Origin: Curvularia clavata
Taxonomy: Eukaryota
DNA: 64,000 nt
Direction of reading: 5' to 3'
Assembly (NCBI GenBank): GCA_023920165.1
Contig: CP089279.1
Coordinates: 1-64,000 of the forward strand
The notes under the pieces were generated by a model that made no database searches, was not told the origin of the DNA, and worked only from the letters and a program-made list of their open reading frames with translations. Below are positions 715 through 8,476 of the stretch, piece by piece. Numbering within the stretch: the stretch's first letter is position 1; each line of letters opens with the position of its first letter. The position numbers and the translations under genes were made by a program.

Positions 715-909
715 CGCTAAGCCTAATTCGGCACGAATCCAGGTGCGATTCACGGCCTCATATTGGTTAGGAGGTAGGCCTCGAAGGTATAATAATAGAT
801 CAATCGAAGCAACCCATAATTATCCTAGATTTTAATCCTAATCTACTATTCTTAAAACTATAATAATTTGACAAGAGTATACAAAGTAGACTGGTAAATG
901 GGTATAGGG

Positions 910-1130
910 CACCCAGCTCGGGTTAGGGTAGGGCTTGGGGCTATAGAGACTCGGGCTGGGGTAGGGCTAGGGCTGCTAAGAGTCGGGCTGGGGTAGGGCT
1001 GGGGCTGCTAAGAGTTGGGCTGGGGTAGGGCTGGGGCTGCTAAGAGTCGGGCTGGGGCAGGGCTGGGTTGCTTGGCACTTGGGCTGGGGTAGGGCTAGGT
1101 TACTAAAGAGTCGGGTAGGGGTAGGGCTAG
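910..1130. repeat. hAT left subterminal repeats (about 30-bp unit AGAGTCGGGCTGGGGTAGGGCTGGGGCTGCTA)
   Basis: About 6 imperfect tandem G-rich units. Confidence 0.85.
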
Positions 1131-1410
1131 ATATAGCCTGCTCAGCTAGGTTACGAATAACTTTAGACTAGAAAAGATTCGAATTTATCACAGTTTATTA
1201 TTACAGTAGCTTTGAAAAGAACTTTGAGATGAAACTAATAGGATTTATTACAGTTGACTATCACGGTAGCGCGCAGGGCGGACACGCTTTCGTAGAGGAA
1301 GTAGTAACTCGTCCTCTACCTTATCTACTTCCTCTAGAGATTCTTCTATATCCTGACTCTAACACTGACTCCCATACTCCTCTATACCTGCTAGGAGCTC
1401 AAACAAATTA

Positions 1411-3855
1411 CTAATATTATTAGAAAGTTAGATAGCTTCCTCTATAGGCTCGTCCAAGTCTCTATCAAGACTCTCCATCTTATTAGAATTCGCAAATTTA
1501 AGAATTATGAGTTGTCGAATCTTTTTAGCAGAAAGCCGATATCGACGATCGCTAATAACTTCCTTAGCAATACTAAAGACTCTCTCTACACCTACTTGCG
1601 CAATTAGTATAGCTAGAATATCTTTTACAACTTAGATAAGATGGGGGTACGTGATCTTACTTACTTTCTACCACTCTAAGATATCGATATATTCCCGTAG
1701 ATCAATACTAGGGCTACTTAGATATAGCTCCCCTTCTTAATAGGTTGGCCCTCTACTCTCCTTAATTTCCTAGCTTGAAGAATCTTAGCTTGAAAGAGAA
1801 ATCTAGCTTGATTATAATCGAAGTAAAGTAGGCCTTCAAAACTATTCTGTGCTTGATACCCTCCGAGGAAATGAGCTTAGTATTAACTGTATAATTTCTT
1901 GATTATTATATCGAGCTAGATAATCAAGAAACTGCTGCTAGTAGATATGCTTATCTTGAAACTCCCATATCTTATTCTATATCTTCTATTAGTATCTATC
2001 TGTGATAAATATCTGTAATAATACCTCGTAGGCTATAAGCTTTTGCGTTAGATCAAGAATCGTCGCGCAGTTGAATAAGAAGCCACGCTCTTTATTAGTT
2101 TTCGAGTAGTATTTACTCAACTTTGCCCTCTCTTTCGCCGCCGCAGCTCTTACTACTTGTGGCCAGTTGCTATTCTCTGAGTCTTCTTCTAAATCAACCT
2201 CCATCTAATCAAGAAAATTAAAAAGCTGATTATACATGAGCTAGATATATAGTATTTAAAGTTTTTAACTCTGACTTAGAGACATTGTTGCAGTCTTAAA
2301 ATGGCTAAGCATTTCAGTAACCATCTCAAGATGCGACCATTCTTGTGCAGATAGTCGTAGTCTCTTAAGATCCTGAGAATCAATATCAGTATTGTTGTCG
2401 GCCTCTGAGAGGTTTTCGGTATGGATAGGAACCCTTAACGCGATCTCATCTTTGAGCCATTTATTGATATATTGCCGAAACTTGACTGCGCGCTTACACA
2501 TATTATATGTCGAGTTCCATCGTATTCTAACATCACAGATAACACTAAGGCGTTTTTTTGGTGGTAGATCCCGTTGTGTTGCGAGAAACCGTTCGTATCG
2601 CTGAGGAGATGAGTCAACTATAATGCAGATTGCTCTAATCTATATTGTAGTTAGTATGTGATAAATAACTGTGATAAAAAATTCTTCCCTTACAAAGTGA
2701 ATTAGGGACTGAGATGTTGGCATCTACTTTATTAATCTGTTGTCTCTGCAAATCTTGTATATTATCTAACTCGGTAGAAGCTAACAGCCTTAAGTGCTGG
2801 ATAATATCCTGGACAACGAGGTTGATAATATAGACTAAGCAGGGAATAGTGTTTTTACTTGGACTCTAGCTTATACTAAGTTGTTGTAGACCTTGCTGAA
2901 GAGACTGCGTAAGAGTGCTATTATTACTGGCATTATCGCAAGTAATGGATAGCAATTTTTTTTGGAGTTCACTTCTAGAAAGAAGTTTTAGAACTTCATC
3001 TACTATTAAAGCTCTAGTATGTCTCCTATAGATCAGTATAAAATCTAAAAGTTTTTCTTTGAGTTGCTATTAAGTATTGATATAGTAACCTTTGATTACA
3101 AGGAAACTAAGATGGTTACTTGAAGCCTAACTATCTAATGCAAGTGATATTTTTGTTCCTTAGCCAAGATCATTAAGAAGCTCAGCTGAAGCCTTCTTAA
3201 ATTGTAACTTAAACGCTAGCTTGAATTTATAACGGCTAATAATTACAGCGTTGGGCTAGAGAAACTAGAGAAATCGTTGAAATGATGGCCGCTCAAGTGT
3301 TCGGAAGCTCTAGTAGTTATCAACTACTACTCTTACTAGTTCTTGTTCGTATGTCTTAGTTGAGTAGGCTGGTATTGCGCGAGGATTAATATTTATTGGT
3401 GGTGGGATACTTTGGCGGAGTGAGTTCGATAGCTTGTTGTATATAGGCGAAGAGATAAGCTGGCAAGTTTAGATTTAACGATATCTATAAAGATGCTTTA
3501 TACTAATATTTCCAGCTGATAGGTGCGCGAGTATATAACTGCAGTTCGAGCAGAAGATATATAGACGGCCAGTTAGGATCTCTACAGCCTTTCCAAAGTT
3601 TGCCCAGATTTGGCTCGTACGACAAGAAGAGCCCTAGTGTGGAACTGGCTTCGAAGGATCTCGGGCTTATGGTGTTTTATTCCACTACTCCTTCTAGTTT
3701 GAAATAATTGCTTTGTTCTCTTCATTGCTATTATTTTCAAGTACTGGATACTGGATGAGTGTAAGTGTGACTTTAAGACCACCTTTGTCTCGGTGTGGAG
3801 CATTTATCTTGAGATGCGCAAGGATATCTGGCGGTTCTGTAGAAGGCTTAGCCAT
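1411..3855 (-). pseudogene. hAT transposase, RIP-inactivated, at least 2 introns (about 1977-2024 and 2640-2693)
   Basis: Start MAKPSTEPP; BED-like IFCSNC..KHL; KISLALD, ITCDNASNN, RWNSTYNMCKRA; C-terminal dimerisation-type domain DILEW..YPHL..KDILAI..VGVERVFS..RYRLS. 3' end approximate. Confidence 0.9.
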
Positions 3856-4152
3856 CGTGAAGATTGTACCTGTGATAAATAACTGTGATAAATTAAAGTT
3901 ACTAGATGGACAAATATTATCTGTGGAAAACTGGATATGGTAGGAAGTTTTAAGTCCTCTAGCTTCTAGCATAGCTAAGATTGTCTAAAATACTAGTGTT
4001 GTTTGACATATGTCTGAAGTAGGTTTTATATAAGAGAAAGTTTGGATCGACACAGGGGTTATACTGTGATTATTGGCTGGGATAAACCCTGGCATAATAC
4101 TCTAAACCCTAACTACTAGAGCATTGTCAGAGATATGCTTGGACAGCCAGCA

Positions 4153-5861
4153 CTACTTAGACTTCTCTTCTTCAGCCTCTTCGTCTTGATCCTCAGCCTC
4201 CTCTATCTTAGCACTATCAGCCCCCTCTGGAGCCAAAAAGCTATCGTTACTACTATAGCCATCCTCATTCTCGTCTATAATCTTATCCTCGTTATTAACC
4301 TCTTCTTCATACTCGTTACTATCATAGCCTTCGATATATGGCTTATTATCCTTAAGACGCGTATCTGGATCAAACTGGTTGAGAATAGAAGTAGGCTTTT
4401 CTTGTCTATACTAGTTAGTTCTTGAATGTGATAATAAACTGTGATAAACTTACTGCTAGGAACTATCTATAGCAAGTTCTTTTTTTTTGGGAGAAAGGTT
4501 CTTGTAAAACTTGAGCTATTTATCTCGTGCTTGCTCGCTCTTAAAGGCGTTGTTGTTTAGCTTAGCCAATTCTCGAAGATATTCTTTGCGTATAAGTGAG
4601 TTAATAACCCCCTTTCGACTATAGAGACGAGCAGAAACGCGTAACCTCTTAGTAGAGGTATTAGACGGGGCGTCGCTAGAGGTAGTCTGGAGAATAAGCT
4701 GATGCCGTCTTTTGTCGATCTCATTCTGGATCTTGGACCATTTCGCGTGCACAGCTTGGAGAGCAAACGCCATCCAATTAGCTAATAACTGTTAGTAGAT
4801 GTCTGTAATAAAAGACTGTGATAACTTACTATTTTGCTTTTCTTTAAAGCGCTTAGATTCATGCTCTTTAAGATGGCTCTTTATAATTCTATTCTTCTTA
4901 TCCTCTCTGGCGGTCTTATACTATTCTTTCTCTTTGAGTGACTTAAGAAATTTCGCCCGAGCAGCGCGGTCAGCATCTTTGGCGCGTTAGAGAGCGGCTT
5001 CTTCCTTGGTACGTGACGCGGCGAGATCTCTCTGTGCAATAGCTCGAGCTGTGTTACTAAGCTGACCTTGATATTGGATTCGCAGACCAGTTGGACAACT
5101 CTTTTAGGAACCTCTATGTTACAAGTAACAAAGAAGGATCTCTCCTTGACGATGGCCGCAGGTAGGAGACCATTGGGCGACACGTCAGAAGGTAATGATC
5201 CCCGCGGAAGGGCGATCACATGACTGGCCTCAGGCCAAGACCGGGAAACCACGCTAGTATGTGAGGACACGCTCACACGTGACCAAAGTGACTTCAGGGA
5301 CTTCAGAGAACACAGGGGTTATTCCGTGAGGACAGTGAGGACAGGACCGGAAGCAATGGGTATAAGAATGTGTTGGATTTCATTATTACACTCGTTGTGG
5401 TCAACTCAGCAAAGTATCTTTCATAGTTACCTTTCATACTCAGATTGATACTAGTTATTCTATCTTCCAATAGGATTGGTTTTGTCTATCTTCCGTTAAT
5501 CCCTACCACCGAATCGCCAGACAACTACCTCACGGTATACTTCATAGAAACTGGCCTCGCCCTAACCCGGAATCTAGGCTAGGTAAGTATATTCCCAACT
5601 AACCAGTAGGACCCCGTGTAACACTCTAGATCCACGTTGCGTAATGATAAAATTGATTTTGTTTTGCTTATTTTTAAAGCCTTACTAACGTTAGTATTTA
5701 CTATGATAATAGACTGGGATTATTATTTTAGTAAGATCTGCCTACTTCTGCTTAGTAAAGTCCTTGGGTATTTGGGCAACGCGTGGAGGTGCTAGACCCT
5801 TAGATACGTTGCCATCAGCCTCTATCGTAGACTCGCGCTTGATTTCTGGCGTGCGCGGCAT
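4153..5861 (-). pseudogene. hAT accessory gene of unknown function (basic/coiled middle, acidic C-terminal tail), split by a solo LTR
   Basis: MPRTPEIKRES start; frame continues across the LTR insertion; introns 4782-4829 and 4406-4453 with GTAAGT/CTAAC/TAG; ends ..EEAEDQDEEAEEEKSK*. Confidence 0.65.
5117..5623 (+). mobile_element. Solo LTR (507 bp) nested in the hAT element
   Basis: TGTTACA...TGTAACA termini; 5-bp TSD CTCTA on both sides; related to the LTR fragment at 48259-48406. Confidence 0.9.
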
Positions 5862-6385
5862 TATTGACTATGATAAAGTACTGATATAACGTCTAGTATG
5901 GTGGGGGTAGGGAGGGGGGGGATAGTTGCTAAGAGAGAGTAGGAAGTTTGGTGATAGTCTACCTATTAAGGTAATTAGGGGTCCGTGCGCTCTGGATTTC
6001 GCGCTAGCGTTGGGCTAGCGAACAACATCTTTCATACAGCCAATATCTTGGATAATAAAAGTTAGAGTGCTTTAATTTTAGTCTTATTTGAAAGCCCTGG
6101 AGTAGCTCTATCTAATAAGCCAGTTATTATAGTATTTAATTACTGCTTCGTTGAGTTATGGCGATTTCTTACTAACTATCTCGCAGACCTTTAGCAAGAC
6201 TCTGGGTGATCTGTGCACTCACCTTTACCTTTATCTTTACCTACTTATATATCCCCAAAATTCTTAACTACTCTATAGCTAAGTATTTGTCCACCAATTC
6301 TCTTAATCTAAATCTAACTTTCCTAGCCTAACGCCAAATTTCTCAACTCAACCCTACTAGTTATTACAGAGATTTATCACGTACT

Positions 6386-7354
6386 ATGTTAGCAGTAGAC
6401 GAGGTGGGGGGGCCAGACGATGAGTCGTTTGAGGAGATGGTAGAACGGTTAAATGTGCTCCCATCGCCTGAAAGACAGGTGTCTTAGCTGCTGTCACCTC
6501 GCGAATTAGAAGCTCTTGAAGACGAATTTGAGGTTTTGGGAGCTTAGATGACTGGCAATCCTACTTTTTCTGCCGAAGGTGGCCAACTAAATCCGTAAGT
6601 TTATTATAGTAATTTATTATAGGAAATGGCTAATAAATGCTAGGACTACTACTTACGATTATCCCTCTCCGCCCCGTATCTTGACTAGTGGCTATCTTGT
6701 ATCTTTTGCGTACGTTTATCACGGTAATTTATTACAAGTAATAGCTAACTAATAGTAGGACTAGCACTATGTTCTATAGTGTAGGTGGCAAAACCGCTCG
6801 TAAGCAGCCAGTTAATTATAGGCCGCCCACGCCTAAGCCCGATAATGAGGATTAAGAGTCGGAAAGCAGCGAGGAAGACGAGTCCGGCCCTCCTACACCG
6901 CCTGGTGCTCAACTATCTACGTCTGGCGCCTCTAAGAGGCGTAGGTTTAAGTCTGGTAGTAAGTTTATTATAGTTATTTATTACAGTAAGCGACTAATAA
7001 TTACTAGCTATTATACTAAAAGAGATTAAAAGATTCTAGAAGTCTACTGATCTGCTTATTCTAAGGACTCGATTTGTAAAACTTGTTAGAGAGATTATGG
7101 GAGACGTATATCCGCAACACCCTCTATATATCTAGAGAGAGGCGTTGGAAGGTCTTTAAGAGGCTGCTGAGTATTTTTTGGTTAGATTTCTTGAGGGTAT
7201 GTTATATTATTACAGATATTAATTATAGCTGCTAACGGATCTAGACTGTAATATGAACGCTATCTATGCTAAGAGAGTTACTATTTAGAAGAAGGATGGG
7301 GATCTTGTTAAGCACTATCTTAATAGGCTTGGTATGGGTGGTATTAAGTACTGA
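6386..7354 (+). pseudogene. Histone H3-like (H3/CenH3 fold) gene inside the hAT element, 4 introns, RIP stops
   Basis: Spliced translation KRRRFKSGTIILKEIKRF*KSTDLLILRTRFVKLVREIMGD..EALEGL*EAAEYFLVRFLEDCNMNAIYAKRVTI*KKD aligns by eye to the H3 fold; tail GGKTARKQ; introns 6595-6643, 6710-about 6758, 6959-7007, 7197-7244. Confidence 0.9.
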
Positions 7355-7544
7355 GGGCTTTCATGATGGAGTATCAAGTACTGATGGCTTTTATGATTGA
7401 GGGATAGCTATAATTGAGAACTAGCTATATGCTAGAAGTTAAATGAAAGTTTTATAAGTTCTTAATTTTTAATTTACTACTGTGATAATTATGCGTGATA
7501 AGTCTTTGATATATACGGAGTATATATATATCTAATAACTAAGA

Positions 7545-7857
7545 CCCAGCATAACCTAGTACTAAGCAACCTAGCCCTACCCCAGCCCGCTTATTAAGCA
7601 ACCCAGCCCTGCCCCTACCCAACTCTTGACTGACCCAGCCCTGCCCCTACCCAACTCTTGACTGACCCAGCCCTGCCCCTACCCAACTTAAATGCCAAGA
7701 GTTGGGTAGGGGCAGGGCTGGGTTGCCTAATAAGCGGGCTGGGGTAGGGCTGGGTTAGCCAAGAGTTGGGTAGGGGCAGGGCTGGGTTGCTTAGTCATCT
7801 GACCCAGCCCTACCCCTACCCAACTCTTAGCAGCCCTGCCCCAGCCCTGCCCCAGCC
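7545..7857. repeat. hAT right subterminal repeats, partly arranged as an inverted repeat
   Basis: ACCCAGCCCTGCCCCTACCCAACTCTTG units at 7570-7690, inverted copies at 7697-7792, forward again 7801-7857. Confidence 0.85.
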
Positions 7858-8476
7858 CATTTACCAGTCTAATACCCTTCCTATTTTATAAATAAGATAC
7901 ATCTATTAGATAAGTTGATTTATTTTACTACGCTTGGTAGCTATGCTAATAGAACTTCGTTAACTAATACACCTTAGCTCGACTATATTTAGCTTTCGCC
8001 GCGAGCTACTATCATATGCTATAATAAGTAGTATACGGTACTTGGCATCTTGATCCTAATTAGTGTCCAGACTTCTCATCACACATTTGTGCTAGCTATT
8101 GCTTTAGCTAGTTTCAGCGTCTTGGGTAGAAACTTCTAGTCGACAAGATGAGCCATCTTCTTCTTAACTGCTCTTGACGCCTATCAACAACAGCACTACT
8201 CTGGCATGCCGAGCGTTATCACAGTGGCTACTTCACTATAGGTAGTTGTCGTCCACTCAGACGCCACTGCGGTTGCTGCTGCCTAGTGCTCGCGTGCTGC
8301 GCTTTCACCAATCACGCGCCCACCATTCACCATTCACTTGCGCGACGCGTTCATGAAGCACGCGTCCACAATCTATTCCTGCGCGTAATTTGCAACAACT
8401 TGCCACCAATATCTGTCTACCCAACCACTCAACTCAACTCTATATCCCCACTACTCTACCTCTCTTTATCGACGTA

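Follow-up and report, generated by a model that had tools for sequence, protein, structure and literature searches.

The window analysed in this study comprises 64,000 nucleotides of Curvularia clavata contig CP089279.1 (assembly GCA_023920165.1; positions 1 to 64,000 of the forward strand). Direct reading of the sequence placed a hAT transposon at positions 887–7871, approximately 0.7 kb from the chromosome end, with a transposase gene, a central open reading frame (ORF2), and a gene for an H3-like histone (H3L; Table 1). The Dimer_Tnp_hAT family (PF05699) matched exon 3 of the transposase with E = 1.9e-14, and E = 4.5e-19 in the related element L046, and the Pfam Histone family matched H3L exon 4 (7010–7195) with E = 1.2e-9. 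The spliced frame of H3L was open throughout except for the marked stops. Elements with a transposase, a central ORF, and H3L between inverted repeats have been described from Pyrenophora tritici-repentis (Ptr; Manning et al., 2013, PMC3538342; this and the other papers are cited for those parts that were consulted). The Ptr element has the three genes of the window element in identical order, its tips and G-rich subterminal repeats are similar, and its ORF2 is homologous (the ORF2 comparison was made by reading only); judged by its sequence, the window element is a member of this published H3L-carrying hAT family. The window copy is unlike the Ptr element in being mutated through repeat-induced point mutation (RIP), adjacent to the telomere, and interrupted by a 512-bp insertion, and in having an H3L with a long N-terminal extension and four introns. 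The copy is dead, since its reading frames are full of stops. Relative to contigs of run X14, which carry the same species label, it had T for C or A for G at 201 of 237 tallied changes, the direction expected of RIP, by which we regard the copy as RIP-mutated.

Table 1. Features of the hAT element in the window.
Feature	Position	Strand	Remarks
Left terminal inverted repeat, TAGACTGGTAAATGGGTA	887..904	+	read directly; inverted partner at 7854–7871; tip common to the miniature element at 325–716; resembles the start of the Ptr consensus
Left G-rich tandem repeats (GGGCTGGGGTAGGG...)	905..1140	.	inverted copy at right end
Left subterminal pairs (1185–1206 and 1245–1266)	1185..1266	+	inward-facing; antisense to transposase
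hAT transposase gene, 3 exons	1240..3855	-	RIP-broken; ATG 3855–3853; Dimer_Tnp_hAT match and translations
Transposase intron 2 with pair, 48 nt	1977..2024	-	skipped by X19 contig, net 48 nt
Transposase intron 1 with pair, 49 nt	2640..2688	-	5' end GG in this copy; X19 joint
Antisense pair in transposase exon 1	3227..3248	+	codons V-I-x-S-R-Y, shared with relatives
Transposase leader pair	3870..3891	-	14 nt upstream of ATG
Degenerate pair between ORF2 and transposase gene	4064..4085	-	2 mismatches, RIP changes forgiven
Central ORF2, 4 exons	4153..5861	-	ATG 5861–5859; split by 512-bp insertion 5112–5623
ORF2 intron 3 with pair, 48 nt	4406..4453	-	48 nt skipped exactly by X14 and X18 contigs
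ORF2 intron 2 with pair, 48 nt	4782..4829	-	X14 joint removes net 48 nt; 48 nt in all 6 elements
ORF2 intron 1 (ninth intron)	5681..5726	-	degenerate pair TAATCCCAG-tcta-TTATCATAG; 5' GT mutated to AT
ORF2 leader pair	5868..5889	-	6 nt upstream of ATG (5861–5859)
H3L leader pair	6361..6382	+	3 nt upstream of ATG (6386)
H3L gene, 5 exons	6386..7354	+	RIP stops; ATG 6386; spliced frame; Pfam Histone match
H3L intron 1 with pair, 49 nt	6595..6643	+	spliced frame; no spliced contig seen
H3L intron 2 with pair, 49 nt	6710..6758	+	spliced frame; no spliced contig seen
H3L intron 3 (after ..KSG) with pair, 49 nt	6959..7007	+	X19 joint removes net 49 nt
H3L intron 4 (FLE|D) with pair	7197..7244	+	relatives' intron at this place without pair
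Right subterminal pair	7467..7501	-	inward-facing; antisense to H3L
Right G-rich repeats, partly palindromic	7552..7853	.	only sub-threshold hairpin matches in Rfam
Right terminal inverted repeat	7854..7871	-	read directly

Throughout the element a short word recurred in pairs with a period of 13 bp, TTATCAC(A/G)(G/T)-N4-TTATCAC(A/G)(G/T). The string TTATYAYAG occurred 30 times in the window against 3.07 expected, a count reached in none of 100 shuffles, and 21 of these occurrences fell within 1184–7500, a tenth of the window's length. Pairs at the 13-bp period with at most 3 mismatches in 18 numbered 14, all of them inside 887–7871 and none in the other 56 kb of the window; once RIP-type changes were forgiven, 24 pairs were counted, 21 inside the element and three outside. 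The window copy carried the pair in sense orientation in all nine introns and in all three gene leaders, and had it facing inward in both subterminal regions. An earlier note, drawn from the letters of this stretch alone, had described such pairs in eight introns, upstream of two start codons, and near both ends of the element. The pairs at the two start codons are present but the list was incomplete, the ORF2 start having one as well, and those near the ends exist but are subterminal: the true tips, TAGACTGGTAAATGGG, lie at 887 and, inverted, at 7871, with G-rich repeats in between.

All eight introns listed in that note had GT..AG ends, a CTAAC or CTAAT branch site, and the pair in sense orientation in genes on both strands, and a ninth, in ORF2, could be added. 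Their layout ran from the 5' splice site through the pair and 5–8 nt to ACTAAC/CTAAT and YAG, so that nearly every one of these minimal introns (45–51 nt) has the pair downstream of its 5' splice site and upstream of its branch point. Removing the introns joined the reading frames of ORF2 and H3L. Evidence of splicing came from contigs of four sequencing runs that were aligned to 800–7900 at 80% likeness: X14, X18, and X19, of RNA type, and X3, DNA from another organism. The RNA type of the first three, which share the species label of the best DNA match, is a guess, none being on record as RNA; they were taken as RNA because their contigs lack introns precisely, and X3 showed no joint at an intron among the 15 joints listed (of 21). 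Six of the nine introns were absent from the RNA-type contigs, which bears out their removal. One X19 joint (2641 to 2695, with 4 letters between) restored ..LRK|IRA.. as in the orthologues, from which the intron previously given as 2640–2693 was shortened to the limits in Table 1; the coordinates of the other seven were kept. At the ninth intron, an X14 joint (5683 to 5730) skips 5684–5729, a net 45 nt. H3L intron 3 is orthologous to L007 716–763 and L003 5137–5184. H3L introns 1, 2, and 4 were retained in the contigs covering them (X14 record 7 and X18 record 14), which may represent DNA, pre-mRNA, or antisense RNA. One X19 contig that kept the minus-strand intron 4406–4453 skipped 203 nt at 4596–4798, with GT..AG on the plus strand opposite ORF2; the contig may derive from an antisense transcript that was spliced, or from a copy with a deletion.

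Relatives were collected by scanning metagenome contigs for one exact pair, which yielded 121 stretches representing 117 loci, and loci of the family were picked by protein comparison (L046/L036, L007/L006, L003, L039, L020, L035, and L008/L026). A tblastn search with the ORF2 protein P0003 matched L003, L006, L007, L008, L020, L026, L035, L036, L039, and L046, and a profile search with ORF2 exons returned 64 clusters with a best E of 4.9e-42. The relatives were without RIP mutation. They shared only 38–46% of residues in the middle exon of ORF2 and about 63–66% of bases with the window in the transposase region, and by eye the window ORF2 aligned with theirs at the intron junctions. Pairs stood at the same places in L046/L036, L007/L006, L003, L039, L020, and L035. 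A further member, the published Ptr consensus (Ptr_cons; Additional file 2 of Dhillon et al., 2019, PMC6710886), was obtained independently of the motif, and it held all 15 exact TTATCAC/GTGATAA matches of the supplementary file; among 14 of the 25 TTATTAC/GTAATAA contexts in that file, none had a partner 13 bp away. Ptr_cons begins with TACGCTGGCAAATGGGT and the window element with TAGACTGGTAAATGGGT, each then running into G-rich repeats (compared by eye). Also by eye, pairs were located in both transposase introns of Ptr_cons, all three ORF2 introns, and the H3L KAG| intron, and outside introns in the ORF2 and H3L leaders, at the antisense site of exon 1, and in the right subterminal region.

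Thirty-seven introns at nine orthologous positions were compiled from the window and five un-mutated metagenome elements. The pair was present with at most 4 mismatches in 18 in 34 of them (no mismatch in 8 introns, 1 in 10, 2 in 9, 3 in 4, and 4 in 3), a level that shuffled introns reached in 18 of 2035 trials. The remaining three, with 6, 10, and 9 mismatches, were the H3L intron after ..FLE in L046, L007, and L003, respectively. L035 contributed three further labelled ORF2 introns with 2, 0, and 2 mismatches. Across the 25 intron pairs of un-mutated loci, positions 1–7 (TTATCAC) were nearly invariant, positions 8–9 were looser, and the spacer was T-rich. Orthologous introns were compared pairwise, and set against the ORF2 exon between introns 2 and 3. 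Identity reached 91% (546/602) for the word core in both copies, 56% for word positions 8–9, 52% for the spacer, and 45% for the 8 nt after the pair, vs. 56, 62, and 34% at codon positions 1, 2, and 3, respectively, and 26% at third positions of invariant residues. Because its core is 91% identical where third codon positions reach only 34%, the word is, on these comparisons, kept by purifying selection, beyond inheritance from recent intron duplication.

These values bear directly on the possibility that the word is a functionless relic, all introns having descended from one intron with a chance tandem duplication. The introns are alike over their whole length, and copying of labelled introns is suggested by the two extra ones (6595–6643 and 6710–6758) in the N-terminal extension of the window H3L, which L046, L003, and L007 do not have. 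We nevertheless consider a passive relic scarcely credible: the core has kept 91% identity while synonymous positions are saturated at 26–34%, the word also occurs outside introns in leaders, ends, and antisense within coding sequence, and spread by recent horizontal copies is excluded because ORF2 identity is 38–46%. Multiplication of introns from one ancestor, proposed in the earlier note, may explain where the labelled introns and their sense orientation came from; it cannot stand alone because the introns are old and orthologous and neutral copies would have decayed. The proposal of an element-specific cis code fared better, given that strict pairs were confined to the element within the window, stood at the same places in relatives with approximately 40% ORF2 identity, and were conserved above coding positions. 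The two candidate host introns found in the window by an ORF-based scan also lacked the pair. Neither outcome named in that note as refuting it was observed: strict pairs were missing from the other DNA of the window, and RNA-type contigs skipped six of the nine introns. The sequence comparisons mark the paired word as a cis-element under selection in the H3L-carrying hAT family of Ptr type.

Pairs were present outside introns too. Two antisense copies of the pair are written into the transposase coding sequence. That in exon 1 occupies a central place in the longest exon, a stretch that offers no intron, and its codons GTG ATA .. CGT TAT were the same in L046, L003, and L039, and in L007 when read in the correct frame. 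The second is the pair at 1245–1266, which on direct reading overlaps the last transposase codons; such an overlap between the end of the gene and the left subterminal pair was present in three elements, in which the last codons (..R-Y-C/R-D..stop) form the reverse complement of a pair (window 1240–1270, L046 ~910–935, and L003 ~363–390). L046 had a six-copy array of 13-bp units at 6233–6306. The largest gap between sites was 773–908 bp in the four long elements, and the spacing in two of them was more even than under random placement: the maximum of 773 bp in L046 was matched by 0.1% of random placements, and that of 800 bp in L007 by 4%. Tandem arrays of 4–6 units of 13 bp containing TTATCACAG, with differing spacers, were also noted in L048, L115, L104, and L080/L010. 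These loci showed no similarity to the element proteins and their arrays were treated as chance or unrelated, although they may be ends of unknown relatives.

The position of the word within introns raises the question of whether it is read in RNA, either in the pre-mRNA or in the 5' leader, where it could enhance or silence splicing from within the intron or mark the transcript for an RNA-binding protein of the element or the host. Such an element would place the expression of the three genes under a single factor, or would make splicing faster, like the Mer1-type intronic enhancers of yeast. In favour of this reading, the pair has a strict sense orientation in motif-bearing introns (34/34) and, across all elements, in the three gene leaders; it stands directly behind the 5' splice site, and the introns are really spliced. 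With regard to the Mer1 comparison, most 5' splice sites already have the consensus GTAAGT but some are weak (GTCTGT, GTACTT, and GCAAGG), and introns without the motif exist. The pair is missing from the H3L FLE|D intron in four relatives (L046, L007, and L003, as above, and Ptr_cons, where the corresponding YFE|D intron was read by eye), and removal of this intron is nonetheless required by the reading frame; among the compiled elements only the FLE|D intron of the window carries it. This intron may have arrived with the captured histone gene.

A derivative lineage, L008/L026, argued in the same direction. It carries ORF2 and H3L together with open frames (3365–5470 of L008, on a 25.8-kb contig), and a transposase was not found in the 16 kb of that contig that were examined. 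Its four family introns keep a length of 45–48 nt and their splice signals, while the pairs can still be recognised at the old register with 4, 8, 6, and 6 mismatches; the non-intronic pairs of L008 favour the variant ATAACAG. Introns are thus retained where the pair is lost. At the conserved antisense copies, which lie in coding sequence and at either end, a transcript would carry the complement of the word; this, and the lack of RNA structure in the introns (mean z of +0.46 for the 34 folded, and no Rfam match), also disagree with a signal read in RNA. We therefore regard an RNA-level element as possible but doubtful, and the splicing-control motif considered in the earlier note as weakened by the pair-less FLE|D introns and the erosion in L008.

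A second way in which RNA could be involved is pairing between sense and antisense copies, the leader and intron copies forming duplexes of approximately 18–22 bp with those of transposase exon 1 and the 3' regions of the transposase and H3L transcripts and thereby serving processing or RNA silencing. Antisense copies are indeed situated inside the transposase and H3L genes or immediately behind them, and RNA-type contigs extend past the pair at 7480 (X14 record 7, to 7590). The ORF2 transcript, with three labelled introns and a labelled leader, has no antisense copy, and the 4-nt spacers are not kept complementary, which makes this explanation highly improbable.

At the DNA level, the element genes could be driven through sites for a host transcription factor, for example of the GATA type. 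GATA-factor sites have the invariant core HGATAR, and regulators such as NIT2 and AreA follow a rule of paired GATA cores within 30 bp. GTGATAA contains TGATAA, the cores occur in pairs within 30 bp, and a conserved host factor would explain why the word was kept across approximately 40% ORF2 identity. We consider this improbable in view of the exact 13-bp period and the subterminal arrays, neither of which would be expected, the absence of the pair from the host DNA of the window, and the pattern of conservation: A6 and C7, outside the GATA core, are invariant or nearly so. A plain GATA-factor site was rejected because the commonest change in the core, C5 to A (1/25 in copy 1 and 4/25 in copy 2), destroys GATA and is at odds with an invariant core.

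The reading we favour is that the pairs are double-stranded DNA sites for an element-encoded protein, spread across the whole element, and we give it a probability of roughly one half. It is favoured because it accommodates the pair-less introns, the erosion in L008, the antisense pair in coding sequence, the inward-facing pairs at the ends, the even spacing, and the unfolded introns. Besides the introns, the pairs occupy the DNA just upstream of three start codons, intergenic DNA, subterminal pairs and arrays, and coding sequence in antisense. The sites would be read as double-stranded DNA by a sequence-specific protein of the element, the first candidate being the N-terminal region of the transposase and the second the central ORF2 protein. 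As no stretch longer than about 0.8–0.9 kb is without a site, such a protein could occupy the whole element, and once bound it could control expression, chromatin state, or transposition competence. Introns would serve as carriers because a compact element with three genes has hardly any other non-coding space, and the uniform sense orientation would go back to the copying of a single type of labelled intron. Among the options in the earlier note (DNA sites for an element-encoded protein comparable to VANC, a splicing-control motif, or introns multiplied from one ancestor), DNA sites would, at about even odds, fit our analysis best.

Several observations weigh against sites of this kind. The sense orientation of all 34 intronic pairs and of all leader pairs, with most intronic pairs starting 0–1 nt after GTAAG(T), would be predicted by an RNA-level element and would not be required of a DNA site. 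For the first candidate reader, no zf-BED domain was found in transposase exon 1 of L046 at E values up to 10, and the only Pfam match was DUF659 at 0.012, below the cut-off; by eye, the N-terminal exon has a C-x2-C...H-x-H pattern. The ORF2 protein belongs to no Pfam family and gave no significant match: the best Foldseek hit against PDB had an E value of 2.6 and a wide VIA-align comparison recovered only generic helical hairpins (Z of at most 7.4), its best score in the protein atlas was 0.76, below the level of a lead, and a word-index search among longer proteins found no match. The pairs may also be dispensable for transposition because a miniature inverted-repeat transposable element (MITE) at 325–716 has the same tips and an 8-bp duplication but, by eye, no pairs, which suggests a role for the word in expression or chromatin and not in cut-and-paste transposition. 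The even spacing of the sites partly reflects exon sizes, and the erosion in L008 concerns a single lineage and is based on 16 of the 25.8 kb of its contig. Finally, the relatives were found through one exact pair, so that one pair per locus was ascertained, a bias that spares Ptr_cons alone.

The ORF2 protein is helical and has an acidic tail. In P0003, P0004, P0029, and L008 (~3370) its C-terminus consists of a long acidic tract and, behind it, the conserved motif ..(T)(D/E)FEGFS(D/P). The acidic tail would suit histone binding.

The closest parallel considered was VANDAL21, whose VANC21 protein binds YAGTATTAY arrays in introns, intergenic DNA, and terminal non-coding DNA of the element (Hosaka et al., 2017, PMC5735166). 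The window family resembles it in having a family-specific short word concentrated in the non-coding parts of the element; in VANDAL21 the word is arrayed in one orientation and bound by the element's own protein. The two differ in that VANDAL21 is a plant Mutator-type element whose arrays are long, variable, fast-evolving, and co-evolving with VANC, whereas the word of the window family, known here from sequence, occurs exactly twice per minimal intron with a constant period of 13 bp, is kept over deep divergence, and is accompanied by no recognisable VANC-like protein. Likeness to the subterminal repeats of other transposons was also apparent. The AAACGG repeats of Ac and the 12-bp motifs bound by TnpA of En/Spm are transposase-binding words confined to the element ends; like the word of the window element, they are short and present in both subterminal regions in inverted orientation. 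In contrast, the window element has the same word also in every intron and leader, and a MITE with the same tips does without it. Introners are near-identical introns that multiply through a host genome. The labelled introns share with them one intron sequence type at many positions in unrelated genes, but are confined to the genes of the transposon, are old and orthologous, and have neither inverted ends nor target duplications; nor did the host DNA of the window contain the pair.

H3-like sequence is also carried by hAT elements of the Mycosphaerellaceae, which, like the window element, are RIP-mutated and which have 8-bp target duplications; according to the authors they share no sequence similarity with the Ptr element, and their H3 capture is intron-less (Dhillon et al., 2019, PMC6710886). 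The paired word is not mentioned in the consulted sections of Manning et al. (2013, PMC3538342) or of the main text of Dhillon et al. (2019, PMC6710886), and we found no description of it among the papers listed on H3L/hAT elements, hAT elements with histone H3, hAT subterminal sites, or hAT introns, nor a relevant one among those listed for the word itself.

Short terminal inverted repeats were present, as expected of a hAT element, and further inward the subterminal regions formed long inverted arms (981–1117 vs. 7552–7688, 77% complementary). The G-rich repeats at the right end (7552–7877) include near-perfect palindromes, for example 7568–7628 vs. 7696–7756 with 97%, and gave many matches to microRNA precursors in Rfam, all below the gathering score. 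The flanks ATACAAAG (879–886) and ATACCCTT (7872–7879) agreed at only 4 of 8 positions and do not form a target site duplication. The family does make 8-bp duplications, since the MITE with the same tips is flanked by a perfect one (CGCTAAGC). Matching flanks are thus lost from the window copy, or were never present; the copy may have arisen by recombination between two insertions, or one of its flanks may have been lost close to the telomere. The MITE is non-coding, has the tips of the large element (TAGACTGGTAAAT..), and contains long inverted arms at 362–413 and 619–670; TTATCAC pairs were not seen in it by eye. The insertion at 5112–5623 in ORF2 is absent from other copies, contigs of X14 and X3 joining 5111 directly to 5624, and had very high depth in all four runs; it is probably another small repeat. 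The first 180 positions of the window begin with what we take to be a long-read sequencing adapter and barcode, followed by approximately 20 CCCTAA telomere repeats, so that the end of the assembly appears to be untrimmed.

In a more far-reaching form of the protein-binding reading, the element would keep its 45–51 nt introns mainly as carriers of a DNA label, copying labelled introns and writing the label into coding sequence elsewhere. Its own protein would coat it at intervals of at most about 0.8 kb and, acting with the element's H3 variant and the ORF2 protein with its acidic tail, would establish a private chromatin state that resists host silencing; the FLE|D intron would then have been relabelled in the lineage of the window. 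We hold this extended reading to be unlikely as a whole. If it were true, introns would act as binding-site scaffolds in a transposon that builds its own chromatin, but should the word prove to be no more than a site for a transposase or a transcription factor, the case would be an ordinary extension of subterminal-repeat biology.

The host element has been known since 2013, and the paired word, undescribed in print as far as we found, would by its putative function be a new variant of element-specific binding-site codes. Two copies at a 13-bp period inside minimal introns would be an unusual use of introns, for which the motif-less introns at one H3L position and the eroded derivative are natural controls. 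The gain of introns within a mobile element could also be studied in this system. The word is conserved more strictly than the proteins and marks every non-coding gap of the element, and the protein that reads it is probably the element's regulator. It thereby provides a concrete handle on the question of why H3L-carrying hAT elements carry a histone gene and a central ORF.

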